Shown here piece by piece: positions 7,699-54,385 of a stretch of 57,047 bases of DNA (its first letter is position 1; every line of letters starts with the position of its first letter). The stretch lies in the IMG/VR virus record IMGVR_UViG_3300028887_000082. One strand, 5' to 3'. Both the position numbers and the translations under genes were made by a program. The notes beneath the pieces were generated by a model. It was not told the DNA's origin and searched no databases. It saw nothing but the letters and a program-made list of their open reading frames with translations. This DNA is from a virus (lineage: Duplodnaviria; Heunggongvirae; Uroviricota; Caudoviricetes).

Positions 7699-8586
7699 AT
7701 GTCAAATGTTTTGAATATTGCTCTCAGAAAGGATGCTTTCGAGAAGCTCATAAATGGGGAAACCAATGAAATCCCCATAAAGAAAAATGACTGGTGGAAG
7801 AAGAGACTGATTGACCAGGAGACAGGTGTATATAAGAAGTTTGATACTGCCAGTGTCACTTGCGGATCCGCAGAGAAATTCCTTTATACAATTGAAAAGA
7901 TTGAACTGAAGGGTAACAAGTTCATCATCACTGTTGAACCAGTTAGATGGATAGATAGTAATGGTGATATTGTTGAACCGGGTGATTCTGATTCAGATTC
8001 GGATTTTGATGATTTTTCAGAGGAGTTGAAGGATACAAACAAGAATCCTGAACTTCTTGAACCCACCAATGTCAATCCTGTCACAATGAATCCTGATGGC
8101 AGTGTAACCCAGACAGTACCCCATATATTGACAGAGGAGGAAAAACAGGCAATAATCCAGAAGTATATGAAGAAAGTCCAGGCCCAGCTCACTGATGACA
8201 TAGAGGAGAATGATGTTGATGTGAAGACCAGGGTATTGAACATTCTTGATTCATTCTGTGAGAATAAGGATGTGTTTGTTGTCAATATGCCGAATGTCAC
8301 AATCAGGTATAATGGTCAGATTGTTGGTTATCATGGAGGACGTAAACTTATCGCAGATCGTGACTCTGATGTGAGGATAGACTTCAAGAAGCATGAACTT
8401 GTCATGATGCAATATGAAACCAATGATGATGGTTTTATCAAGTACATCAATGATTACCTGGACAGCATGCTTAAGAACAATTATGTGTTCATCAACCGGA
8501 AATCCAGTGGGTTCTATATGGATGCAAATGGTGAATTGGTCTTCAGGATATTTGCGGTGTCAAAGAAGAAATACCTGTTCAAATAA
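7699..8586 (+). CDS. hypothetical protein, N-terminus weakly ASCH-like
   Basis: LNIALRKDAFEKLINGE...WWKKRL resembles ASCH N-terminus; low certainty on function. Confidence 0.65.
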   Translation: MSNVLNIALRKDAFEKLINGETNEIPIKKNDWWKKRLIDQETGVYKKFDTASVTCGSAEKFLYTIEKIELKGNKFIITVEPVRWIDSNGDIVEPGDSDSDSDFDDFSEELKDTNKNPELLEPTNVNPVTMNPDGSVTQTVPHILTEEEKQAIIQKYMKKVQAQLTDDIEENDVDVKTRVLNILDSFCENKDVFVVNMPNVTIRYNGQIVGYHGGRKLIADRDSDVRIDFKKHELVMMQYETNDDGFIKYINDYLDSMLKNNYVFINRKSSGFYMDANGELVFRIFAVSKKKYLFK

Positions 8587-11778: not shown

Positions 11779-12573
11779 TTACCATTGAAGGAACTTGGGT
11801 GTATATGTGAAACCAAGTGTTATTCCTAATCCGATAGTAGGAACAAACTTTTGGTTGATGGGGTCATAACTCATACTTGCATTGGGACCAACTGCCACAC
11901 CGAGACCACAATTCTTTCTCATACTTCTTTCATATGATTTACTCTGTTCTGCCACAATACCCATACCAGAATTGAACTGTACCCCAGGATAATCAGTCCT
12001 CAAATGTATGAATGTCTCATCAGTCTTTGTGTTTCTCTCCAACCATCCTTCCACAAATATGTTCTGGTCAAGAGTGAATGTCGCATTACCTGTGTGAAGT
12101 TCATTGTCTGTAACATTATAAGGTATTCCTACAGAGAATGATCTGCTTGATTTACCATAGTTGTCAGACTTTGCAATCTTAATCGTACCATCTTCAATTT
12201 CAGCATTTACCTCAACTTCCTTGATGATGGTTGTTTCAACAGTCACTGTATCTTTGACATGCATATTGGTGTTGATATATGTAAGATACTCCTTGTTTTT
12301 CTGCTTGAGAAGACCTATACTGTCCCTCAATTCCTTCTGTGTGAGTTGATATGCATGTTTCTCTGCATTTGCCCTACCCAGTTCATCCTGGTAATTTGTG
12401 ATTTGTTCAGTAAGTGTGATTCTGTTGTTCTCCTGTCTGTTGATTTCATTGTTCAGATTACCTATCTTACTGTGTTGGCAGGAAATTATGAACCCCAGAC
12501 CAATTATAATACTGATAAAAATGAGATCCTTGTATTTCTTGAGATACTTCAAGATTTCTAAAAACTTTTCCAT
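11779..12573 (-). CDS. membrane-anchored coiled-coil protein (spanin-like)
   Basis: N-terminal TM, coiled coil, beta-rich C-terminus ending FLQW; CATAAATA at 12630-12637 (-). Confidence 0.55.
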   Translation of the reverse strand: MEKFLEILKYLKKYKDLIFISIIIGLGFIISCQHSKIGNLNNEINRQENNRITLTEQITNYQDELGRANAEKHAYQLTQKELRDSIGLLKQKNKEYLTYINTNMHVKDTVTVETTIIKEVEVNAEIEDGTIKIAKSDNYGKSSRSFSVGIPYNVTDNELHTGNATFTLDQNIFVEGWLERNTKTDETFIHLRTDYPGVQFNSGMGIVAEQSKSYERSMRKNCGLGVAVGPNASMSYDPINQKFVPTIGLGITLGFTYTPKFLQW

Positions 12574-43060: not shown

Positions 43061-43095
43061 TTTTTTTGTTATATTTAATATTGAAAAATAATTTT

Positions 43096-43116
43096 CATAA
43101 ATACTTTACATAAATA
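43096..43116 (+). promoter_or_regulatory. tandem CATAAATA late-promoter motifs upstream of leader 1
   Basis: Copies at 43096-43103 and 43109-43116. Confidence 0.55.
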
Positions 43117-43120
43117 TAGT

Positions 43121-43195
43121 ATGATGACACTCAATAATAACATATCAGATAGGAGATCCGATTTAAATAAATGGGATCCATCAGGTGTGTGTTGA
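43121..43195 (+). CDS. attenuator leader peptide 1 (24 aa)
   Basis: MMTLNNNISDRRSDLNKWDPSGVC*; last codons form the antiterminator strand; same MMTL start as leader 2. Confidence 0.75.
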   Translation: MMTLNNNISDRRSDLNKWDPSGVC

Positions 43196-43262
43196 AGTGT
43201 CAAACTATAAAATCATCCAATATATCTCTCAACCACACCTTTGAAAAAAGATGTGGTTTTTT
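43183..43262 (+). terminator. attenuator 1: antiterminator 43183-43195/43229-43240 versus terminator 43231-43262
   Basis: AGGTGTGTGTTGA pairs with TCAACCACACCT; AACCACA-C-CTTT(GAAA)AAAG-A-TGTGGTT plus T-tract. Confidence 0.75.
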
Positions 43263-43273
43263 ATTTGAAATAA

Positions 43274-43305
43274 TTTGGATAATTCAAAAAAAGTTGTTAT
43301 CTTTG
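43274..43305 (+). promoter_or_regulatory. Bacteroidota sigma70-type promoter for tRNA array 1
   Basis: TTTG (43274) - 20 nt - TATCTTTG (43298). Confidence 0.8.
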
Positions 43306-43317
43306 TAGTGTTGAAAG

Positions 43318-43432
43318 TTCAATACCAGTTAAGTATCAGTATCGAGGGTTGTAGGCCAATACTTAACTAGCACCAACTGACAGTGTGTGGAATATGTAGC
43401 AATGTGGCTATACTGATACTCTGGTTTTGAAT
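43318..43432 (+). ncRNA. structured leader with two mutually exclusive helices
   Basis: AGTATCAGTAT/ATACTGATACT (11 bp) versus GTTAAGTAT/ATACTTAAC (9 bp). Confidence 0.45.
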
Positions 43433-43446
43433 TAATTATTAGGTTA

Positions 43447-43519
43447 GGCTCCGTAGCTCAGTTGGTAGAGCACGGCACTTTTAATGCCGGGGTCACGGGT
43501 TCGAGCCCCGTCGGAGTCA
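43447..43519 (+). tRNA. trnK: tRNA-Lys(TTT)
   Basis: Full cloverleaf; CGGCA-CT TTT AA-TGCCG; CCA not encoded. Confidence 0.92.
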
Positions 43520-43532
43520 CAAAAAAGTTCTG

Positions 43533-43671
43533 GGTGGGACCGGATAACCTTGCAAGGGTTATTGATGATTATACTATATGTACTGATGGGTTAGTCCAGA
43601 CTTAAAATCCACAAAGGCAATTGTACATAGTCCTGAAGTGGTTGAGGAGAGGTGCTTGCAATACTCTCACC
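43533..43671 (+). ncRNA. candidate structured RNA with two TTGCAA-loop hairpins
   Basis: GGTGGGA/TCTCACC closure; TATGTAC/GTACATA; TTGCAA at 43550 and 43656. Confidence 0.4.
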
Positions 43672-43677
43672 AAAAGG

Positions 43678-43753
43678 AATATCATAGCTCAGTTGGTTAG
43701 AGCACCCACAGACTGTAATTGGGAGGTCAGAGGTTCGAGTCCCCTTGATGTTA
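43678..43753 (+). tRNA. atypical tRNA, Thr(TGT)-like with enlarged anticodon loop
   Basis: Normal acceptor, D and T arms; anticodon arm CCCA-CAGACTGTAAT-TGGG. Confidence 0.6.
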
Positions 43754-43759
43754 CAAATT

Positions 43760-43770
43760 AGTTCTTTGAA
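43760..43770 (+). promoter_or_regulatory. boxA-like antitermination element
   Basis: AGTTCTTTGAA; further copies at 46507, 47665, 49550, 52011. Confidence 0.6.
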
Positions 43771-43771
43771 A

Positions 43772-44106
43772 TATTTGTCTCAATGATGGTTATTTCTGCT
43801 TGTGTTTAGAGTTCCCGTCAGCAAACCTCAAAAGGATTAAATGTGGATTTCCACTATGTCCCGGTAATAACGCTGATAGCAGAATTAACAATCCCTATCT
43901 GGTGAAGACTGAAGATAAGGTGCTAAGCCCTGTAAAGATGAAAAATCACTATCTATGTCAATCCAGGACACTGTTTGTTTAAGATAGTGTATTGAAATAT
44001 AGAGGGTAGTCCAAACAGGTTAGGATGCGAAGTTTAAGTAACATTACTATGGACGTAGAACACTTCTCTATTCTTGCAAGATTTCAATGAGGGATTGAGA
44101 CAAATA
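43772..44106 (+). ncRNA. candidate ~335-nt structured ncRNA
   Basis: Perfect 13-bp end-to-end helix TATTTGTCTCAAT/ATTGAGACAAATA with nested stems. Confidence 0.6.
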
Positions 44107-44110
44107 ACAT

Positions 44111-44184
44111 TGGGATGTAGCTATAATGGTTAGAGCAACTGGCCGTTAACCAGAAGGTTGCAGGTTCGAGTCCTGTCATCCCAG
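44111..44184 (+). tRNA. trnN: tRNA-Asn(GTT), C33 variant
   Basis: CTGG-CC GTT AA-CCAG; G73. Confidence 0.88.
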
Positions 44185-44192
44185 CAAAAGAT

Positions 44193-44277
44193 ACCCCAAT
44201 GGTGGAATGGTAGGCACGTCAGATTTAAGATCTGATGACCCGTAAGGGTCGTGTGGGTTCGAGTCCCACTTGGGGTA
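44193..44277 (+). tRNA. trnL: tRNA-Leu(TAA)
   Basis: TCAGA-TT TAA GA-TCTGA, long variable arm. Confidence 0.9.
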
Positions 44278-44292
44278 CACACCACGAACACA

Positions 44293-44389
44293 ATGATGCA
44301 GCGTGGGTTCGGCATACTAGCTGCCGGGGTGTCTTTGACATCATAGAATTGGTGCGTCATCGGCCAGGTGACCCGAGTGGAAGACTGGC
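44293..44389 (+). ncRNA. candidate ~100-nt structured ncRNA, possible pseudoknot
   Basis: ATGATGCA/TGCGTCAT, CGGCA/TGCCG, GCCAG/CTGGC; GGGT/ACCC cross-pairing. Confidence 0.5.
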
Positions 44390-44394
44390 AAATA

Positions 44395-44468
44395 GGGCCT
44401 TTAGCTCAGTTGGTCAGAGCAACTGACTCATAATCAGGAGGTCCCAGGTTCAAGCCCTGGAAGGCCCA
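44395..44468 (+). tRNA. trnI: tRNA(CAT), probably Ile2 (lysidine type)
   Basis: CTGA-CT CAT AA-TCAG; body resembles bacterial Ile2 (GGGCCTTTAGCTCAG...GGTTCAAG). Confidence 0.8.
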
Positions 44469-44559
44469 CAAATATTAAAGAAAGAATTTATGACACAGAT
44501 GCTTAAACAGAAACAGGTATAGTCTGACCTCATTCAGTTATGAGGTCTCAAATGATTAT

Positions 44560-44631
44560 GGCCTTGTAGCTGAGTGGTAAAGCACCTGTCCTTTAAACAG
44601 GGGATCGTGGGTTCAATCCCCACCTGGGCCA
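44560..44631 (+). tRNA. trnK: tRNA-Lys(TTT), C33 variant
   Basis: CCTGT-CC TTT AA-ACAGG. Confidence 0.85.
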
Positions 44632-44641
44632 CAAAACATAT

Positions 44642-44713
44642 GCCTCCATAGTTCAACGGATAGAACGGAAGTTTCCTAAACTTTTGATATGGGTTCGATT
44701 CCCGTTGGAGGTA
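44642..44713 (+). tRNA. trnR: tRNA-Arg(CCT)
   Basis: GAAGT-TT CCT AA-ACTTT. Confidence 0.9.
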
Positions 44714-44719
44714 CAAAGA

Positions 44720-44903
44720 TAAATAGCACCCATACAAAGATCTATATGGGTAAAGACAACTGGACACGCCAAAGACTACGTGCCTTCTGGGATCGACACT
44801 CCGGAGTTATGTCACCCACCTGAGCGGCGGAACTGGTCTGGGTAACCAGGGTTTAATCTGAAGGGAAACCCCAGAGGAAGAGATGTCCGGATTGTGCTAT
44901 TTA
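44720..44903 (+). ncRNA. candidate ~185-nt structured ncRNA
   Basis: 10-bp closure TAAATAGCAC/GTGCTATTTA; TGGACA/TGTCCG; CTTCTGGG/CCCAGAGG. Confidence 0.55.
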
Positions 44904-44910
44904 ATAAAAC

Positions 44911-45083
44911 GTTTAGGAATAGAGGTAGTTTTCCAGCGGGAATTAAGGATCACTGCTCGACATTAAGTTGTGAGTAAGATTGCCACCGGGTAACCAAACC
45001 TGGGTCGCCAGTAAGAAAGGTGGGTATGGTCGTCCCACCGAGTATGAACGCGGGCATAAAGACAGAACACTATAACCCTAAAT
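44911..45083 (+). ncRNA. candidate ~170-nt structured ncRNA
   Basis: GTTTAGG/CCTAAAT closure; GGTGGG/CCCACC; shares GGGTAACCA with preceding element. Confidence 0.45.
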
Positions 45084-45096
45084 ATGAGACCAATAT

Positions 45097-45169
45097 GGTC
45101 TGGTAGCTCAATGGATAGAGCAACAGCCTTCTAAGCTGTGGGTTCTGGGTTCGAGTCCCAGCCGGATCA
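45097..45169 (+). tRNA. trnR: tRNA-Arg(TCT)
   Basis: ACAGC-CT TCT AA-GCTGT. Confidence 0.92.
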
Positions 45170-45333
45170 CTTAAGGGATGATAGTCCACCTCCCTTAACA
45201 TAGGATGATATGTTAGAAGAAATTACTGTGGACAACAAAACCAAAGCCAGACTGCAAATGGTGAAGGTTGGCGTTCTGAATATGAACAATTGGATTTTGC
45301 AGTGTTCAGTTGGGATTTGAAGGTTCGTAAAAT

Positions 45334-45402
45334 GCTTGTTGGTGTAGTGGTTAGCATTCCCCCACCCGGGGGCGACGCTCGGTTCGAATCCGGCACAGGA
45401 GA
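45334..45402 (+). pseudogene. degenerate tRNA
   Basis: D arm GGTGTAGTGGTTAGCAT and GGTTCGAATCC T-loop, but CCCCC-ACCC-GGGGG anticodon arm and weak acceptor. Confidence 0.5.
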
Positions 45403-45423
45403 CTAAGTTATAATAATTAAGGA

Positions 45424-45735
45424 ATGGAACAGAAACCAAGAATTAAGTGGAAGAACTTCAAGATCTGGATTAAGGACCAGTTGAAGAGGAAGACCTGGTT
45501 CAGGAATTTCTTCATTACAGGAAATGCCTGGGGTGGATTCAGTATCAACTCACACATCAACCAGCATACAGGTCAACCGAAGATAACCTACAACCATTTT
45601 GAATCCGCAAAGAAAGCGGCAGACAAGATGAGTCAGAAACATGGTACACATTTCAGTGTTTACAAGTGTCTCTATTGTGACGGTTATCACATAGGAAAGA
45701 ACAGGGAGAATAAGACGGATTATGACAAAAAATAA
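45424..45735 (+). CDS. hypothetical protein
   Basis: Basic; YKCLYCDGYHIG zinc-finger-like tail. Confidence 0.75.
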   Translation: MEQKPRIKWKNFKIWIKDQLKRKTWFRNFFITGNAWGGFSINSHINQHTGQPKITYNHFESAKKAADKMSQKHGTHFSVYKCLYCDGYHIGKNRENKTDYDKK

Positions 45736-45740
45736 AAATT

Positions 45741-46202
45741 ATGAGTAAGTTAGAGAACAAGATCCAGGAGGATATGGTTGAGGCAATGAAGAACAAGAAT
45801 GAGTTTGTACGTGATACACTCAGGATTGTCAAGAGTGAGATAGGTGTCTTCAAGACCAGTGAGAAGTTCATCAAGAGAAATACTGAAATCACAGATGATG
45901 ATATTCAGGGTATCCTTGAAGAGATGGTCAAGAGGAACAGAAAGAACATTGACACAGCGAAGGCCGCAAACCGTGATGACATAGTAAAGAAGAATGAGGA
46001 TGAGATTTCAGTCTTTGAGAGTTATCTCCCAAAGAAGATGACTGAATCAGAGATAGAGGAGGTTGTTGTGAAGACCATCCAGGACCTGGGTGCAACATCA
46101 ATGAAGGATATGGGAAAGGTAATGGGTTTCATCACCAAGACATATGCCGGAAAGGTGGATGGTTCAGTTGTTTCAAAAATTGTGAAGTCTAAACTTGGTT
46201 AA
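45741..46202 (+). CDS. GatB/YqeY domain protein
   Basis: IQEDMVEAMKNK...LPKKMTESEIE...MKDMGKVMG...GKVDGSVVS. Confidence 0.88.
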   Translation: MSKLENKIQEDMVEAMKNKNEFVRDTLRIVKSEIGVFKTSEKFIKRNTEITDDDIQGILEEMVKRNRKNIDTAKAANRDDIVKKNEDEISVFESYLPKKMTESEIEEVVVKTIQDLGATSMKDMGKVMGFITKTYAGKVDGSVVSKIVKSKLG

Positions 46203-46213
46203 TATAAAGAATT

Positions 46214-46444
46214 ATGAAAACTTGGATAATAGTATTGACAATTGCTTTCATCTTCTTGAAGCTTGTTGCAAGAGGGTTTGCAAACTACATCAGGAATGAC
46301 AAGGAAGAGAGAGTGAAGTATTACTTTACCAGTGGTGCAACCCCACTTGGTGTGATACACGGATTCATTTCTCTCTTTGGTACACTGGTAGGATTTGCTG
46401 ATATAATCCTGATCATCATAATGGTTGCGAACAGATTGTTATAA
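46214..46444 (+). CDS. small membrane protein
   Basis: Two hydrophobic segments. Confidence 0.65.
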   Translation: MKTWIIVLTIAFIFLKLVARGFANYIRNDKEERVKYYFTSGATPLGVIHGFISLFGTLVGFADIILIIIMVANRLL

Positions 46445-46459
46445 ATCATTACATAAATA

Positions 46460-46492
46460 TTTGGATGTTTCAGATATTTTTGTTATATTTGT
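46460..46492 (+). promoter_or_regulatory. Bacteroidota sigma70-type promoter
   Basis: TTTG (46460) - 21 nt - TATATTTG (46485), followed by boxA-like 46507-46518. Confidence 0.7.
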
Positions 46493-46551
46493 AACCAGAA
46501 AAGAGAAAGTTCTTTGAAATTTTTAAAATTTGTTCAACATAAATATAATAT

Positions 46552-47334
46552 ATGATTGTCGAACAAATGGATAAACCCAAGTATCATTATTTCTATAAAA
46601 TAACAAATAGACTCAATGGACATTATTATTATGGTGTTCATTCAACATATAATCTTGATGATGGATATATGGGGTCTGGAAAAAGATTACATATTGCTTA
46701 TAAGAAATATGGTATAGAATGTTTTGAAAAGGAAATTTTAAAATTTTTCAATACCAGAAAAGAATGTGAGGAATATGAAGAATCAGTTGTTAATGAAATA
46801 TTGATTGGTGATGACAATTGTTATAATTGTGTACCTGGTGGAGGAACTTTAAAAACTCCAGGAAAAGCATGCTTCATTGATGAAAATGGTAATATTATAC
46901 AAGTAACCACAGAAGATGCACATAAGAGAGGATTAAGAGGTAATGCAGTGGGTACAACATTAGTAATTGTTGATGGTGAATATGTTATGGCTGATGTTGA
47001 TAAACTTAATGATTATGATTCATTTAAGTATCCTATGAGTGGAAAAATAACAGTATATGACAAAAATAATAACCATTATGTTGTAAGTTGTGATGATAAA
47101 AGATATATTTCTGGAGAATTAAGACCATTCTGGTCAGGTAAAAAACTTTCAGAGGAAACAAAAACAAAAATTAAAACATCACTATCACTAATACATCATC
47201 AACAAGGTGAAAAAAATTCTCAATATGGAACTTGTTGGATTACTAAAAATAATGAAAACAAGAAAATTAAAAAAGAGAATTTAGAAACATATCTTAATGA
47301 TGGTTGGGTTAAAGGAAGATTTATAAAACACTAA
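46552..47334 (+). mobile_element. free-standing GIY-YIG (Seg-like) homing endonuclease
   Basis: YFYKITN...YYYGVH...GYMGSG; NUMOD3-like KKLSEETKTKI; AT-richer than neighbours. Confidence 0.8.
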
Positions 47335-47352
47335 ATGTGTTAATGATATATA

Positions 47353-47662
47353 GGTCTTGTTGATACTTTCAGGAAAAACTGTAGGACACGGGTTCGAGTC
47401 CCGCTACCTCCACAAATTTATATTTTTTATATGGGGGTATATTGGTTTTGACTGCTTTTAAGTATGGGAAGAGGAGAGGTCTATCGCCAATAACTGGCAA
47501 AAACAACAATTTCTCTGTAAACTTTGGCCCTGTTGCACAAACAGCTGCTCCAAAGGCTATGATGGCTGCCGCTTAATCGTGGTTTCCCTGATTAGTAAGT
47601 ACACTGGCCAGGCTGGTGTCACAGAAGGTTCTATCCATCTTGTCCAAAAAGATGGATCTTTT
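47353..47662 (+). ncRNA. ssrA: circularly permuted two-piece tmRNA
   Basis: T arm plus 3' acceptor TACCTCC-A (47405-47412) precedes 5' acceptor GGGGGTA (47433); G3:U70; ATAACT|GGC resume; tag 47496-47576 GKNNNFSVNFGPVAQTAAPKAMMAAA*. Confidence 0.88.
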
Positions 47663-47683
47663 GAAAGTTCTTTAAAATATTAT

Positions 47684-47787
47684 ATGGGTGGATTGTATGC
47701 AGTTCTTGATAAGTCTGTATCAGTACTTGCAGATACTGTCTTGAATTAAAGTAAAGAATAGGATCCTGATTACAATAAGTTCCCACC
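47684..47787 (+). ncRNA. candidate ~105-nt structured RNA
   Basis: GGGTGG/CCACCC closure; TCTGTA/TGCAGA hairpin. Confidence 0.35.
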
Positions 47788-47824
47788 CGCCCTTACAGTT
47801 ATGGTTAATCTGTGAAAACCAAAT

Positions 47825-48017
47825 GGGTCAATAGCTCAATGGTAGAGCAGCGGACTGTATAAGGAGTGGTTTACCGGAACAAACCAACCTGGTATGGTCG
47901 AGTGGTCAAAGACGTAGGTTTAGAAAACCGGAGTAAGTTAAAAACTTGCAGACGTTGGTTCAAATCCAACTATCAGGTCTAATCCGCAGGTTGTAGGTTC
48001 GAGCCCTACTTGGCCCG
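47825..48017 (+). tRNA. trnN: interrupted tRNA-Asn(GTT): exons 47825-47858 and 47980-48017
   Basis: Joined exons give a 72-nt cloverleaf with GCGGA-CT GT|T AA-TCCGC, short variable loop and G73. Confidence 0.8.
47888..47978 (+). tRNA. nested type-II tRNA-Ser(AGA)-like gene inside the tRNA-Asn anticodon
   Basis: CCTGGTA/TATCAGG acceptor, TGGTCGAGTGGTCAAAGAC D arm, TT AGA AA loop, long variable hairpin, GTTGG-TTCAAAT-CCAAC. Confidence 0.7.
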
Positions 48018-48021
48018 CAAA

Positions 48022-48109
48022 GTACATAGGAAGTCCTGGTCGTGGTGCACGCTTATGTTAGGTTCGGGTTTGATCAACCCACAGAGGTTCGAGTCCTCTC
48101 TATGTACCA
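48022..48109 (+). ncRNA. tRNA-like RNA with non-canonical D/anticodon region
   Basis: 8-bp acceptor GTACATAG/CTATGTAC, AGAGG-TTCGAGT-CCTCT, GGGTT/AACCC arm. Confidence 0.6.
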
Positions 48110-48126
48110 AATAATAAATATAATAT

Positions 48127-48217
48127 GGAGGAGTGGCAGAGTGGTTTATTGCAGAGGTCTTGAAAACCTCCGGGCGTGTTGAGCGCCCCGTCGGTTCGAA
48201 TCCGGCCTCCTCCGCCA
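48127..48217 (+). tRNA. trnS: tRNA-Ser(TGA)
   Basis: GAGGT-CT TGA AA-ACCTC, long variable arm, G73, CCA encoded. Confidence 0.93.
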
Positions 48218-48398
48218 GTATAACAAATTCCAAAAGTTTGTTATATTTATTAAGGTTTTGTTATGTGTTTGTTTTAAGTTAAAGGTTCTAACCGCAACAA
48301 TTACAAAAAAGATGCTGTTCACATTTTCCAAATGAACCTTGTTTTGTTTCAAACACACAACTTCAAACCAAATAAACATTTAAATTAATTAAAAAAGT

Positions 48399-49040
48399 AT
48401 GAAGAAATTTTTGGCGTTTCTTATGAGCCTTGTGCTCATTTTCGGTTTGAGTTCATGTAACTCTTGCACAAGAAACCAGACTACTCCTACTGAAGAGACC
48501 ACACCGGCAGTTGCTGAGTTGGTTGTTGAGAATGTAATCTCTACTGACCGTCAGGCAATGTACCTTGCACATGGTGGTGACTACAGATGGTATGAGACTG
48601 GTGTTCAACTCAAGGACTGGCTTGATGAAGAGAATGATGGTACTATCGATATGGTAGTTAATGTTTTCCAGGTAATTGAGGAGTATGATTCAACAAGTTT
48701 TGATACCTATGTTTACAAGTATCAGCATTTTTCAGATGGTACTGTAAATGAAGATGGTGTTCATGGTTTCTGGGTTGAGGATTATCCTCTTGAACAGGAA
48801 GTAATTAAGGTAACATTCAAGGAAGCTTACCAGAAGATCCAGGAAGTTAATCTCCCAAGACCTCATTCACGTCAGGTTGTATTGAGAAAGCCTATCGGTC
48901 CTAAGGATTGCAATCCACAGTGGATATTTGGTAATCTCCATGAGCAGATTTGGGTTGATGCAGTTACAGGTGAAGTTACTAACAGTAACCCTGCATTTGA
49001 TGGTCTGAATCTCGGTACTCCACTTGGTGAGTGGCCCTAA
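48399..49040 (+). CDS. putative lipoprotein
   Basis: Signal MKKFLAFLMSLVLIFGLSSC. Confidence 0.8.
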   Translation: MKKFLAFLMSLVLIFGLSSCNSCTRNQTTPTEETTPAVAELVVENVISTDRQAMYLAHGGDYRWYETGVQLKDWLDEENDGTIDMVVNVFQVIEEYDSTSFDTYVYKYQHFSDGTVNEDGVHGFWVEDYPLEQEVIKVTFKEAYQKIQEVNLPRPHSRQVVLRKPIGPKDCNPQWIFGNLHEQIWVDAVTGEVTNSNPAFDGLNLGTPLGEWP

Positions 49041-49052
49041 TAGAAACAATAT

Positions 49053-49115
49053 AGGTTGAATGGTACAACCTGAAGTTAAATATCCACAGGGAAAGGGTTA
49101 GCCCTGGAAGTTAAA
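49053..49115 (+). repeat. two tandem hairpin-GAAGTTAAA modules
   Basis: AGGTTG/CAACCT+GAAGTTAAA and CAGGG/CCCTG+GAAGTTAAA. Confidence 0.45.
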
Positions 49116-49127
49116 GTCACCCAATAC

Positions 49128-49252
49128 TATGATGTGACAAGGAATAGGTATACTTGCGCCACGAGATAATATCAGATGGAAGAAGAGGAAGGGTATTCTT
49201 CATAAAAGTTGGACTAATTTAGTCAATGTGGGTTCGAGTCCCACTATCATAG
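49128..49252 (+). ncRNA. tRNA-shell RNA with expanded anticodon region (125 nt)
   Basis: TATGATG/TATCATA-G acceptor, CAAG/CTTG D stem, variable hairpin, GTGGG-TTCGAGT-CCCAC. Confidence 0.6.
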
Positions 49253-49259
49253 CAAATAT

Positions 49260-49333
49260 CGTGGGGTGCTAGCAGTGGTCAGCTAACTGGGCTCATAACC
49301 CAGAGGTCAGGGGTTCGAATCCCTTCCCCGCTA
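49260..49333 (+). tRNA. trnfM: initiator tRNA-fMet(CAT)
   Basis: C1:U72 mismatch, CTGGG-CT CAT AA-CCCAG (three G-C pairs). Confidence 0.88.
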
Positions 49334-49341
49334 CTAAACTT

Positions 49342-49479
49342 GCCAGTATAGGACAGTATATTGGACATCTGTAACCTCATGGGAGGTCGCAAGAGAGAAT
49401 GAAGGTAACATCTTCAACGTACCGGGTTAGTTCAAAGTAGAATACTCTTGTTATGTAAGTTCGATTCTTACTATTGGCA
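49342..49479 (+). ncRNA. tRNA-shell RNA with multi-hairpin insert (138 nt)
   Basis: GCCAGTA/TATTGGC-A acceptor, GTAAG-TTCGATT-CTTAC T arm, CAAGAG/CTCTTG inner stem. Confidence 0.6.
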
Positions 49480-49508
49480 CAAAAAAAAATAAAAAAGTTT
49501 CAAAAATA

Positions 49509-49540
49509 TTTGGTAGTTTCAAATTTTTTTGTTATCTTTG
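49509..49540 (+). promoter_or_regulatory. Bacteroidota sigma70-type promoter plus boxA-like element
   Basis: TTTG (49509) - 20 nt - TATCTTTG (49533); AAGTTCTTTGA 49550-49560. Confidence 0.8.
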
Positions 49541-49588
49541 TAGTGTTGAAAGTTCTTTGATAGTTTTAAATAAAACAAGGGTGGGTTT

Positions 49589-50654
49589 CTCATCCTTCCC
49601 AAGAAGCCTTCGGGTTGAGGGAGAAAGATAACCAGTGAATACATAAGCTGGGAAAGTCAGTAAGATATTGCATAGTATCCCTGGCGGAGGGTTCAAATCC
49701 TCCCTGTAAGAAAACCAAGATGGTCAGCATATCCTGGAATGGCAGTACACTGTGAAAGGGGTATGCGGAGGCTCTTACCAAGTCTCCTTGAGTGGTAACA
49801 CTGACAAGAACCATTTTGCTTCCGGACAAAAAGATTACCGGTCTGATTGTCTGAATGACCAAAGTTTATTGATATCCAAGAGACTACACCAAGTCTTCCT
49901 AACAGGTGGTGCTGAGATTCCAGAAATGGTTGGATATTAGAATTAGTAGAATGAGTAACACAGAGGTGTGTGAAAGTAGAAAGGTGATGTATCTAAACCT
50001 CTCAAAAGGAGGCATGATAACAAGGGTAACCTCATCTTTCAATCGGTAAATGCTCAATGATTCAAATTGGATGTTGACCAAAGACAGAATAATTAGATTA
50101 TTAAGCAAGCAAAAGTGTTACCCACACTGTAGGACAATACAGTTATGCTTCTGTAAGATGAAGCCTTATGGATCCCGCAAAGTGAAGTAAGAGTATCGCC
50201 AGTATGGACAATGCAAGTGGAGGCATCCACTCAACTCGGCAGAGGTCTTTGGCTTGAAAGCAGCTATGTAATACAGTGTAGTGACTATGGTAGTCTTGGT
50301 GGAAACACCATAAATCCACCTGTATCCGCTTCACCAATAGCAATGTTGGTGTGTGTAAATCTCAGGCGACTGGGACTTGTCCTGAAAAGGAAGAGAGTAG
50401 AGGCGGCGATTGGGGTCAACACTCAGCCCAAATCAATGAATTATTCAGAGTCGGTAACCAGTCCGGTATGGAAGAGCGAGACTTCCCTGGATAACAAAGT
50501 GATATTATAGAGGTACAAATTCTCCTGAATATATAGAACCACTCAGGAGGTTAATTCGAGGCCAGGGATATTACTGAAACAAATTCCCTTTTGGTTCACA
50601 GGGAATGGGAAGAGTGAGTTTGTAATCTGCGAGGTCGGGTTAGTTTTATCTCTT
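49589..50654 (+). ncRNA. giant (~1.05 kb) structured ncRNA candidate, GOLLD/ROOL-like
   Basis: No credible ORF; ends pair (49589-49601 with 50606-50618, 12 of 13); UUCG and GAAA tetraloop hairpins; internal T-loop; own promoter; in tRNA array. Confidence 0.65.
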
Positions 50655-50659
50655 CAAAT

Positions 50660-50733
50660 GGTGCGTTGGTGAAGTTGGTTATCATGCCACCCTGTCACGG
50701 TGGAGTTCACGGGTTCGAGTCCCGTACGCACCG
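50660..50733 (+). tRNA. trnD: tRNA-Asp(GTC)
   Basis: CCACC-CT GTC AC-GGTGG, G73. Confidence 0.93.
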
Positions 50734-50900
50734 CACATAAATATTATGTAAAGAACCATACCGCAATTTTAAACAAATTTCATTTTGATTGAAGAAACCA
50801 TTGGTTCTTGTTTCGTTTCTTTGTTTAGAAAAACAAAGTGGCAGAGACTGGTGGAAACACCCCTCTTGTGAGTGGTAATCTCACATACAAAAACTTGCCG

Positions 50901-51003: not shown

Positions 51004-51011
51004 CATAAATA
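51004..51011 (+). promoter_or_regulatory. CATAAATA late-promoter motif upstream of leader 2
   Basis: Same context as leader 1. Confidence 0.55.
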
Positions 51012-51031
51012 ACTTATAAAGATTAAAAATT

Positions 51032-51148
51032 ATGATGACATTGCATACACATATTATGTTTATTGCGGGCAAGCCAGGTTGTTATCGTTTTTGGGAACAG
51101 AAGCAACTCGGACCTAAAGGTGTGTGGGTATGTCACCAGGATAAATAA
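51032..51148 (+). CDS. attenuator leader peptide 2 (38 aa)
   Basis: MMTLHTHIMFIAGKPGCYRFWEQKQLGPKGVWVCHQDK*; GVWVC codons form the antiterminator strand. Confidence 0.75.
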   Translation: MMTLHTHIMFIAGKPGCYRFWEQKQLGPKGVWVCHQDK

Positions 51149-51248
51149 GGATTAAACCAGGATAGGAAAGAAGGTACAGGAAATCCAACAAATATCAATA
51201 GAGACATCTCACACAAATCCAAAAAAAGATTTATGTGAGATTTTTTTT
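51122..51248 (+). terminator. attenuator 2: antiterminator 51122-51134/51203-51214 versus terminator 51206-51248
   Basis: GTGTGGGTATGTC pairs with GACATCTCACAC; ATCTCACACAAATC/GATTTATGTGAGAT plus T-tract. Confidence 0.78.
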
Positions 51249-51256
51249 ATTAACAC

Positions 51257-51331
51257 TGGGTAGTACGGTAATTGGTTCACCGGCTGCATTTGGGATGCAG
51301 ACATATGCGAGTTCGAGTCTCGTCTACCCAA
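51257..51331 (+). tRNA. trnP: tRNA-Pro(TGG)
   Basis: CTGCA-TT TGG GA-TGCAG. Confidence 0.88.
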
Positions 51332-53677: not shown

Positions 53678-54385
53678 ATGAAATTAGGAAATTTAAAGTA
53701 TCATTATTTTTATAAGATAACCAACAATATAAATGGTCATTTTTATTATGGTGTTCATAACACAAATAATTTAGATGATGGTTATATGGGTAGTGGTTTA
53801 AAATTACAAGAAGCATATAAAAAATATGGTATTGAAAACTTCACTAAAGAAATATTAAAGTTCTTTGACACATCTGAAGATGCATTTAAATATGAAAGTG
53901 AGATTGTTACAATTGATTTAATAAAGTCAAAGAAATGTTATAATATTCAACTTGGTGGTAAATCCATTAACACTTCTGGTTTAATTGTTGTTATTGATAA
54001 AAATAATATAAAAACATTAATACCAAAAGATGATGACAAAATAATAAAAGGTAATGTGAAAATTTATTCTCCTTTAAAAAATAAATTGGTTGTAAAATAT
54101 AAAAATGATAATGATTATTTTTTAATTAATAGTGATGAATATGATTCTAACATTTATGAAACAAGTTGGACAAATAGACATCACACACAAGAATCAAAAA
54201 GTAAAATAAGAAAGACTTTAACACCTCAAAATTCTAATAATTCACACATATGGATTAATAAAAATGGGATAGTTAAATATTTAGATAAAAGAAAATTAGA
54301 TGAATATTTAAATGATGGATGGACATTGGGAAGAAGTGGATATAAACCAAGAAAGGGATGTAGAGGTAAGAAAATAGAAATATAA
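53678..54385 (+). mobile_element. free-standing GIY-YIG (Seg-like) homing endonuclease
   Basis: YFYKITNNINGHFYYGVH...GYMGSG; NRHHTQESKSKI; paralog of 46552 gene; very AT-rich. Confidence 0.8.

Follow-up and report, generated by a model that had tools for sequence, protein, structure and literature searches.

A probable codon-matched leader-peptide attenuator before the first tRNA unit of a tRNA-rich phage, and its paralogue before the second

The 57,047-nucleotide stretch of DNA analyzed here (the window) comprises bases 24250–81296 of a 153.6-kb Caudoviricetes virus record, IMGVR_UViG_3300028887_000082, and coordinates are those of the window unless marked as genome. There are 43 tRNA and tmRNA genes in this genome, all on the + strand and within a single 24-kb region, and the first unit of them is preceded by a short open reading frame (ORF), leader ORF 1, whose ends take part in alternative RNA pairings with each other and with a transcription terminator. 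We think it reasonably probable, from sequence comparison, that this segment is a ribosome-mediated, codon-matched leader-peptide transcription attenuator before the first tRNA unit; the attenuator architecture is the firmest part of this explanation, and the sensing of tRNAs is the least firm. The evidence comes from the predicted anatomy and its conservation, from compensatory changes, from a coding signature that is strong for a second leader, and from a match between leader codons and tRNA genes. The parts of the first attenuator are these:

43096–43103 and 43109–43116, + strand: two tandem CATAAATA boxes, candidate phage promoter or 5′-untranslated region (5′-UTR) motif
43121–43195, + strand: leader ORF 1, 24 codons plus UGA, peptide MMTLNNNISDRRSDLNKWDPSGVC; codons 2–17 are the proposed sensing zone
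43125–43202, + strand: hairpin 1:2 (anti-antiterminator), with the ORF start as its 5′ strand and the ORF end plus 7 nt as its 3′ strand
43184–43202, + strand: region 2, GGUGUGUGUUGAAGUGUCA, which pairs with region 1 or region 3 and holds the stop codon
43229–43239, + strand: region 3, UCAACCACACC, the antiterminator partner of region 2, overlapping the 5′ arm of the terminator
43231–43262, + strand: intrinsic terminator 3:4, with a stem of 7 + 4 pairs, a GAAA loop and a U-run

Leader ORF 1 starts 60 nt after the stop codon of an upstream gene of 255 aa and reads ATG ATG ACA CTC AAT AAT AAC ATA TCA GAT AGG AGA TCC GAT TTA AAT AAA TGG GAT CCA TCA GGT GTG TGT TGA, exactly as the original prediction, made from this sequence alone, had quoted it. 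Hairpin 1:2 reaches from 43115 to 43209 in the window phage, and the 180-nt stretch has a minimum free energy (MFE) of -43.2 kcal/mol, with z = -3.67 relative to 200 dinucleotide shuffles. The last 12 nt of the ORF, GGUGUGUGUUGA (43184–43195), can pair instead with UCAACCACACC (43229–43239), and the resulting 2:3 duplex has an energy of -17.3 kcal/mol against -8.3 +/- 2.5 in shuffles (P=0.003). The terminator hairpin (AACCACA-C-CUUU GAAA AAAG-A-UGUGGUU followed by U4) has an energy of -8.9 kcal/mol and is present in the MFE structure; it is missed by a simple consensus scan because of its internal mismatch. The UGA of the leader lies inside region 2, where a terminating ribosome would be placed to mask it, and the first AUG is unpaired in every ortholog fold, in an AU-rich stretch. 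The classical layout of 2:3 versus 3:4, in which the ORF end pairs with the 5′ arm of the terminator, had also been proposed originally; it is present and conserved, and it is accompanied by compensatory changes. A box C/D or kink-turn reading of the AUGAUGA sequence was dropped on inspection, the opposite strand having no GA.

These parts suggest how the switch could operate. Transcripts would begin at the CATAAATA-type boxes and carry the 24-codon ORF, the ends of which would form hairpin 1:2. A ribosome reaching the UGA would cover region 2, terminator 3:4 would form, and transcription would stop at 43262; a ribosome held in codons 2–17 would open 1:2 and free region 2 for the 2:3 antiterminator, and the polymerase would then enter the tRNA genes. 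Nearly all of codons 2–17 are predicted to be read by tRNAs of unit 1 (four Asn, Ile-ATA, Ser TCA and TCC, two Asp, Arg AGG and AGA, Leu TTA, and Lys AAA), so that the switch would report how well those charged tRNAs are supplied and would adjust their synthesis accordingly. The paralogous switch at 51004–51256 would gate unit 2 likewise. Because there is a host-type promoter past the terminator, the unit-1 switch would govern only those transcripts that start at the upstream boxes. In this scheme the start site, the stalling, and any dependence of read-through on tRNA supply are inferred. Whether tRNA-rich phages have in this way a tRNA homeostat, with the leader ORF of each unit sampling that unit's own codons about once and either the total decoding time or a hard stall on a cleaved or missing tRNA setting the read-through, is in our judgment an even call.

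Relatives of leader 1 were found by two routes: homologs of the upstream 255-aa protein led to syntenic contigs (L119–L121), and an exact 21-mer from leader 1 led to a 345-kb IMG/VR phage (G001) and to five metagenome contigs. All nine orthologs have the ORF, the hairpin, the antiterminator, the terminator, and the downstream promoter. The ORF is 23–24 codons long in each of the nine, the only indel being one of 3 nt inside a triplet repeat, with peptides that vary between MMTLNNNISDRRSDLNKWDPSGVC and MMTLNNISNRKSDLRKLDSFGVV. L119 matches the window exactly over the first 56 nt of the ORF, although the neighbouring protein is just 72% identical. G001 has both units, 7.3 kb apart.

The 1:2 hairpin has the same fold in all nine orthologs and is maintained by compensatory changes, with UGACACUCAA/UUGAaGUGUCA replaced by UGACAUUA/UAAUGUCA, GAGAUCC/GGAUC by GAAAUCC/GGAUU, and CCG/GGG by CCA/UGG. 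Terminator 1 is almost invariant among them, and the 2:3 duplex has an energy of -15 to -21 kcal/mol in every ortholog, against -8.9 for the terminator. Leader ends of the GUGUGUUGA form are accompanied by the terminator flank UCAACCACACC in four of four cases, and those of the GUGGUAUAA form by AAAACCACACC or a near variant of it in five of five. The 2:3 changes extend past the stop codon, with GUUGAAG/CUUCAAC in L119 and L125, GUUGAGA/UCUCAAC in L127, and GGUGUGGU/ACCACACC in type 2; at one position past the stop codon the partners in regions 1 and 3 both change with it, as the alternative pairing predicts. Each leader's own pairings are more stable than those obtained by swapping strands between orthologs, both for 2:3 (P=0.002) and for 1:2 (P=0.016).

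Several other searches for relatives were made. In a viral contig library, the 255-aa protein and the YqeY protein of the window gave no syntenic relatives, and the sole YqeY match there (L118) is without tRNAs and without CATAAATA. The more distant homologs of the 255-aa protein (L122 and L141–L144) have no tRNA array after them, and hence offer no diverged attenuators. A loose DNA pattern, CATAAATA-N8-30-ATGATGACA, gave 117 chance matches in the viral contig library, of which those in L002 and L019 are far from any downstream tRNA and those in L009, L035, and L047 are in unrelated sequence. A copy of ATGATGACA at 54030 in the window lies within an AT-rich homing-endonuclease-like ORF and is not a third leader.

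The second attenuator has the following parts:

51004–51256, + strand: attenuator 2, paralogue of attenuator 1, before tRNA-Pro
51004–51011: CATAAATA box
51032–51148: leader ORF 2, 38 codons
about 51036–51135: hairpin 1:2
51119–51137: region 2
51203–51214: region 3
51206–51248: terminator
from 51257: tRNA-Pro

The order of its elements is a CATAAATA box, a 20-nt spacer, ATGATGACAYT, the 38-codon ORF, and the terminator. The 5′ end of the ORF pairs with GGUGUGUGGGUAUGUCA close to the ORF 3′ end, and GGUGUGUGGGUAUGUCA alternatively pairs with GACAUCUCACAC (51203–51214), a 2:3 pairing that is stronger than in shuffles (P=0.0006). Among the orthologs the energies are -18 to -23 kcal/mol for 1:2, -14 to -18 for 2:3, and about -13 for the terminator, and the 2:3 duplex has a compensatory pair in L134, where AUGUC/GACAU is AUGCC/GGCAU. 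The leader-2 stop codon is 9 to 15 nt past region 2, and masking of region 2 would therefore be partial. The two leader peptides have in common an MMTL start and a GV-x-C end because the RNA-forming ends are common to both units; their middles are wholly different, and there is no common motif except these stem-fixed ends. Since tRNA-Pro starts only 8 nt after terminator 2 there is no space for a promoter between them, and the same is true of all seven sequenced leader-2 orthologs, in which tRNA-Pro begins 8–13 nt past the U-run.

The DNA comparison of leader 2 uses these seven distinct orthologs. With the 40-aa leader-2 peptide of G001 as the query, 14 homologous peptides were found in the protein database, already predicted by gene callers, and a profile search of 1.84 billion representatives added five more cluster representatives and nothing beyond this small family. 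Terminators 1 and 2 are each conserved in all orthologs of the respective leader. A scan for a hairpin followed by T6 on the + strand of genome positions 66000–92000 gave four sites: two behind the leaders, one at genome 86347, just past the last tRNA of the region, and one outside the tRNA region. Only the leader-linked sites thus lie inside the 24-kb region, which therefore consists of two units, each entered through a leader and a terminator.

We conclude from the pattern of sequence variation that leader 2 is probably translated. Pairwise proportions of synonymous (pS) and nonsynonymous (pN) differences are about 0.45 and 0.17 respectively, giving a pN/pS of about 0.3–0.4; codon positions 1, 2, and 3 account for 15, 11, and 26 of the variable columns; and the indels, in a nucleotide alignment made without reference to the protein, are all of 3, 6, or 12 nt. 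The block AGKPGCYRFWEQLG varies almost solely by synonymous changes (GGC/GGT, TGT/TGC, TAT/TAC, GAA/GAG, and CTC/CTT). By the same kind of evidence we infer that leader 1 may be translated in vivo as well. All of the leader-1 substitutions stay within the codon set of unit 1, a pattern that is not significant given transition bias (estimated at ~0.06). Four rumen or gut metatranscriptome studies provide RNA contigs over the tRNAs and, at very high coverage, over 49630–50436; the leaders are covered at a depth of only 3–5, and one contig ends at 51005, in the CATAAATA box of leader 2. These contigs do not show RNA ends, and therefore show just that the leaders occur in RNA libraries, speaking neither for termination nor against it.

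The tRNA genes that the two leaders would control are partitioned as follows:

43447–50734, + strand: tRNA transcription unit 1 (from ARAGORN and Rfam), with Lys TTT (two), an odd tRNA, Asn GTT (two, one of them split), Leu TAA, Ile2-like CAT, initiator CAT, Arg CCT, Arg TCT, Ser AGA, Ser TGA, and Asp GTC, together with a permuted tmRNA, a GOLLD-like RNA, and YqeY and GIY-YIG genes
from tRNA-Pro at 51257 to the terminator at genome 86347: unit 2, which includes Leu CAA, Val TAC, and an intron-containing tRNA-Thr(TGT)

The two tRNAs with CAT anticodons had been assigned as fMet and Ile2, and their sequences agree with this: the one at 49260 looks like an initiator, with C1xU72 and three G-C pairs in the anticodon stem, and the one at 44395 is Ile2-like, with C4-G69 and C5-G68. 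A Thr-like tRNA with a TGT anticodon had also been listed in unit 1, and this is doubtful. The tRNA-shaped gene in question (43678–43753), which scores 46 bits against the Rfam tRNA model, has an anticodon loop of 9 nt, where the positional counterpart in G001 (L131:4029-4104) has a 7-nt loop and a different anticodon; the gene may not decode, and there is therefore no clear reader of ACA in unit 1. The sole ACA reader found is a tRNA-Thr(TGT) of unit 2 at genome 85369–85524, about 4.1 kb past the window end, with an 83-nt intron behind position 37.

Codons and tRNAs were matched by standard wobble rules, with the CAT tRNA at 44395 counted as Ile2 and that at 49260 as a reader of ATG only. Leader 1 then has 15 codons read only by unit 1 (array 1) and 5 read only by unit 2 (array 2), while leader 2 has 4 and 24 respectively (Fisher test, p=5e-5). 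The match is also above chance, both against dinucleotide shuffles (P=0.0008 for leader 1, P=0.014 for leader 2, and P=1e-4 combined) and against gene windows, where the leaders cover 10 of 10 (P=0.002) and 17 of 19 (P=0.001) of their own anticodon types. There is no such match in the other two reading frames, and the number of distinct amino acids in each leader is by itself unremarkable (P=0.34 and 0.11). The choice of isoacceptor tracks the unit, leader 1 using AGG, AGA, AAA, ATA, and TTA, and leader 2 using CGT, AAG, ATT, and CTC; we note that CGT accounts for only 3 per 1000 codons in the genome and is invariant in all leader-2 orthologs. The claim that every anticodon type of array 1 has a codon in leader 1 thus holds for the 10 types counted here, with the Thr-like tRNA set aside as doubtful, and the claim that codons served by array 2 are absent from leader 1 holds in part: CTC, TGG, CCA, GGT, and TGT are present.

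The position of these exceptions is of some interest, as four of the five are clustered in the final seven codons of leader 1. If a sensing zone is defined from the textbook ribosome footprint, such that the A-site codon and the 14 nt after it stay 5′ of GGUGUG, then cognates of the leader's own unit make up 14 of 16 codons in leader 1 (codons 2–17) and 24 of 24 in leader 2 (P ~5e-5 each), a result that is exploratory since the zone was chosen after the data had been seen. The three unit-1-type codons of leader 2 (AAA, GAT, and AAA) are all 3′ of the zone. There is also a small agreement involving alanine: a tRNA-Ala comes directly after tRNA-Pro in four of six relatives, and all six leaders have 2–4 Ala codons, and the window has no tRNA-Ala behind tRNA-Pro and a single Ala codon in leader 2.

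Besides the choice of the zone after the fact, a number of observations weigh against this explanation. Unit 1 reads neither of the two exceptions within the leader-1 zone, ACA and CTC. Most tRNAs have just one codon each, Asn alone being repeated, where classical attenuators use runs; single codons are weak starvation sensors, and the arrangement would be better suited to integrating the total decoding time or to detecting absent or cleaved tRNAs. G001, which is 94% complete, has no tRNA-Leu(TAA) in its 345 kb, yet its leader 1 has two TTA codons and a TTG, and the leader is therefore not strictly tracking the content of the array; the arrays of the relatives are otherwise largely conserved, and too alike for co-variation of leader and array to be seen. 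The coding signature of leader 1 is weak, with a pN/pS of 0.4–0.8, and the orthologs represent few independent lineages, about four for leader 1 and therefore few independent events. One low-depth RNA contig runs from 43126 through terminator 1 into tRNA-Lys, and another covers 51036–51203, up to the foot of terminator 2; both are weakly informative. Finally, array 1 has its own conserved promoter past the terminator, and the switch would not be its sole control.

This promoter and the boxes around leader 1 are the following:

43065–43079, + strand: TTTGTTATATTTAAT box, a recurrent intergenic motif like the extended Bacteroidetes -7 promoter element (TAnnTTTG-like), with a putative promoter role
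43274–43305, + strand: candidate Bacteroidetes-type promoter, TTTG-N20-TATCTTTG, with TTTG at 43274–43277 and TATCTTTG at 43298–43305

The TTTG-N20-TATCTTTG sequence lies 3′ of terminator 1 and is conserved across the orthologs, and it fits what we take to be the Bacteroides promoter consensus, TTTG/TAnnTTTG. The caution given with the original prediction, that a host-type promoter at 43274 bypasses the terminator, was thus correct, and this element can, to judge from its sequence, drive array 1 independently of the attenuator. The TTTGTTATATTT motif of the TTTGTTATATTTAAT box is repeated in intergenic regions and kept in orthologs; in the form TTGTTAT(A/C)TTT(A/G) it is found at 43065–43079, at 43293–43305, and at further intergenic sites, where it resembles the extended Bacteroidetes -7 box, and it is probably the host-polymerase promoter class of the phage. 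Parts of the stretch occur in RNA runs from rumen and gut metatranscriptomes, and the host is probably a rumen or gut member of the Bacteroidales. A sigma-70 promoter scan is unsuited to such a host, and its match (TTTTCA-N17-TATAGT, 43092–43120) was not above shuffles. The segment between the promoter and tRNA-Lys (43310–43440) is covered by short RNA contigs and is conserved in L119, where it is interrupted by an additional insert of about 130 nt; this segment could represent a structured leader of the precursor.

There are 23 copies of CATAAATA on the + strand of the 153.6-kb genome and 10 on the - strand, where we estimate that base composition would give about 8 per strand. They are almost all intergenic, lying 4–36 nt before ORF starts or adjoining RNA genes (in the window, for example, at 2960, 3908, 24591, 43096, 43109, 46538, 50736, and 51004), and some copies come directly after a tRNA 3′ end. 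In real ORFs the usual spacing from CATAAATA to the ATG is 4 nt or about 20–30 nt, often as CATAAATA-N2-4-TATAAA, and the leader-1 ATG is 18 nt past the distal box and 5 nt past the proximal one. The boxes are kept before both leaders in the relatives. This distribution suggests that CATAAATA is probably a phage promoter or 5′-UTR signal, and the CATAAATA-N4-ATG cases point to mRNAs with no leader or almost none.

Three other explanations have to be weighed against these data. The leaders could be translation-dependent attenuators that respond to something other than their own tRNAs, either as a general gauge of translation capacity or through ligand-responsive arrest by the nascent peptide, as in TnaC, SpeFL, and ErmCL. 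All of the structural and coding evidence fits this equally well, and it would accommodate the strongly conserved block AGKPGCYRFWEQLGQKGVCMS in the leader-2 peptide, as well as the poor suitability of one codon per tRNA for sensing starvation and the TTA codons of G001 where the phage tRNA-Leu(TAA) is missing. What neither a gauge nor peptide arrest predicts is that the partition of codons between the leaders mirrors the partition of the tRNAs, down to the isoacceptor; moreover, leaders 1 and 2 have no common peptide motif beyond their stem-fixed ends, and diverged leader-2 peptides have deletions within the conserved block (CY-LWEQ in P0044, where Arg and Phe are missing from the block, and RFW-QLG in P0045, where Glu is missing). 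We regard a signal of this other kind as unlikely.

It is more improbable, in our view, that the leaders are independent micro-protein genes with a promoter and a terminator of their own, in which case the alternative pairings would be incidental and transcription of the arrays would come from other promoters or from leakage. Promoter-like boxes, an ORF, and a terminator do amount to a complete small gene, array 1 does have its own promoter, the leader-2 peptide is under purifying selection, and gene callers predict the ORF in many assemblies. Against this, the pairing between the ORF end and the 5′ arm of the terminator is kept by compensatory changes that include nucleotides past the stop codon, no ortholog has room for a promoter between terminator 2 and tRNA-Pro, and the codon match would go unexplained; the two 'proteins' are unrelated in sequence, yet they have in common an RNA layout and a position before tRNA blocks. 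We give slightly less credence still to a non-coding structured RNA with a fortuitous ORF, be it the 3′ hairpin and terminator with which the upstream operon ends, a processing site of the RNase III type, or a small RNA. The hairpin does have very high stability and a conserved nucleotide sequence, the weak coding signature of leader 1 and its location 60 nt past the 255-aa gene would suit such an RNA, and there is no Shine-Dalgarno sequence before leader 1, though a Shine-Dalgarno-like motif is found in just 20 of 150 long ORFs of the genome. A non-coding RNA does not account for the excess of third-position variation and the uniformly in-frame indels of leader 2, nor for a codon match that vanishes in the other two frames; in addition, the ATG lies within an AU-rich stretch that is unpaired, its distance from a CATAAATA box is that of real genes (4 or about 20 nt), and there is no match to an Rfam family. 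We favor the codon-matched attenuator.

The virus record has a G+C content of 38%, and besides the tRNA genes the window includes genes for an RNA ligase, a CCA-adding enzyme, NAMPT, an NAD-dependent DNA ligase, and the YqeY protein, as well as the tmRNA. A megablast comparison of the region with GenBank phages gave matches limited to tRNA-Arg pieces. Unit 1 contains several unusual RNA genes. The tRNA-Asn(GTT) at 47825–48017 is split in its anticodon loop by an insert with a tRNA-Ser-like cloverleaf, an arrangement that is conserved in G001 (L131:7507-7682). In relatives, tRNA-Leu(TAA) and tRNA-Ser(TGA) each occur in two halves, separated by about 500 nt and about 200 nt respectively (L119:11614-11643 with 12150-12194, and L131:7802-7837 with 8046-8073), which suggests that they hold large insertions or introns. 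The tmRNA at 47321–47667 is circularly permuted (ARAGORN; Rfam RF04321, 56 bits), and its ortholog in G001 has a similar tag peptide. The GOLLD-like large RNA at 49630–50436 matches RF02032 at 49979–50429 (E=9.4e-20, 77 bits, which is below the gathering score of 150), and in rumen metatranscriptome contigs from three studies its word depth is 340–530, compared with 2–30 elsewhere in the region.

If phages do have a tRNA homeostat of this kind, it would be the first known example of tRNA genes under leader-peptide attenuation and a built-in sensor of host defences that target tRNAs. When and why phages express tRNA arrays is debated, with compensation for codon usage, degradation of host tRNAs, and evasion of anticodon nucleases among the proposed reasons, and a cis-acting sensor that ties tRNA synthesis to the decoding speed of the same codons would provide a regulatory rationale for the arrays, with a directly testable readout. 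The range of leader-peptide attenuation would grow to include RNA genes and a multivalent, isoacceptor-specific sampler, in a phylum without Shine-Dalgarno-led initiation, and the switch would supply a compact natural part that senses tRNA availability. Small ORFs before phage tRNA blocks thus merit annotation. Full-text literature searches found neither tRNA genes nor phage tRNA arrays described as being under leader-peptide attenuation; neither leader matches an Rfam family, even at E up to 5, and there is no match to the Rfam T-box riboswitch at its gathering score or at E up to 5.

Among known systems, the predicted anatomy is that of trp/his-type leader-peptide attenuators. As in the trpL, hisL, leuL, thrL, and ilvGMEDA attenuators of E. 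coli and Salmonella, there is a short and probably translated ORF upstream and a set of exclusive helices, 1:2, 2:3, and 3:4; as in the trp/his type, the regulatory codons are in region 1 and the stop codon is placed for masking of region 2; and as in multivalent leaders such as that of ilvGMEDA, several amino acids would be sensed at once. The differences from these amino acid operon leaders are that tRNAs rather than biosynthetic enzymes would be regulated, that about 10 tRNAs (unit 1) or 20 tRNAs (unit 2) are represented, mostly once, in place of codon runs, that the match is at the level of isoacceptors, and that the system belongs to a phage of a Bacteroidota host without Shine-Dalgarno usage. 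The pheST operon of E. coli, in which phenylalanyl-tRNA synthetase is controlled by leader-peptide attenuation through a run of Phe codons in pheM, is similar in that a component of the translation apparatus is attenuated, and differs in sensing a single amino acid and in having a protein gene as its target. The Bacteroid-trp leader motif of Rfam, a predicted Bacteroidetes leader-peptide attenuator with Trp codons before the trp operon, does not match the leaders described here, and it makes attenuation of this kind plausible in the host phylum. T-box riboswitches likewise use transcription antitermination to report the state of a specific tRNA, but they bind the uncharged tRNA directly through a specifier codon, with neither a ribosome nor an ORF.

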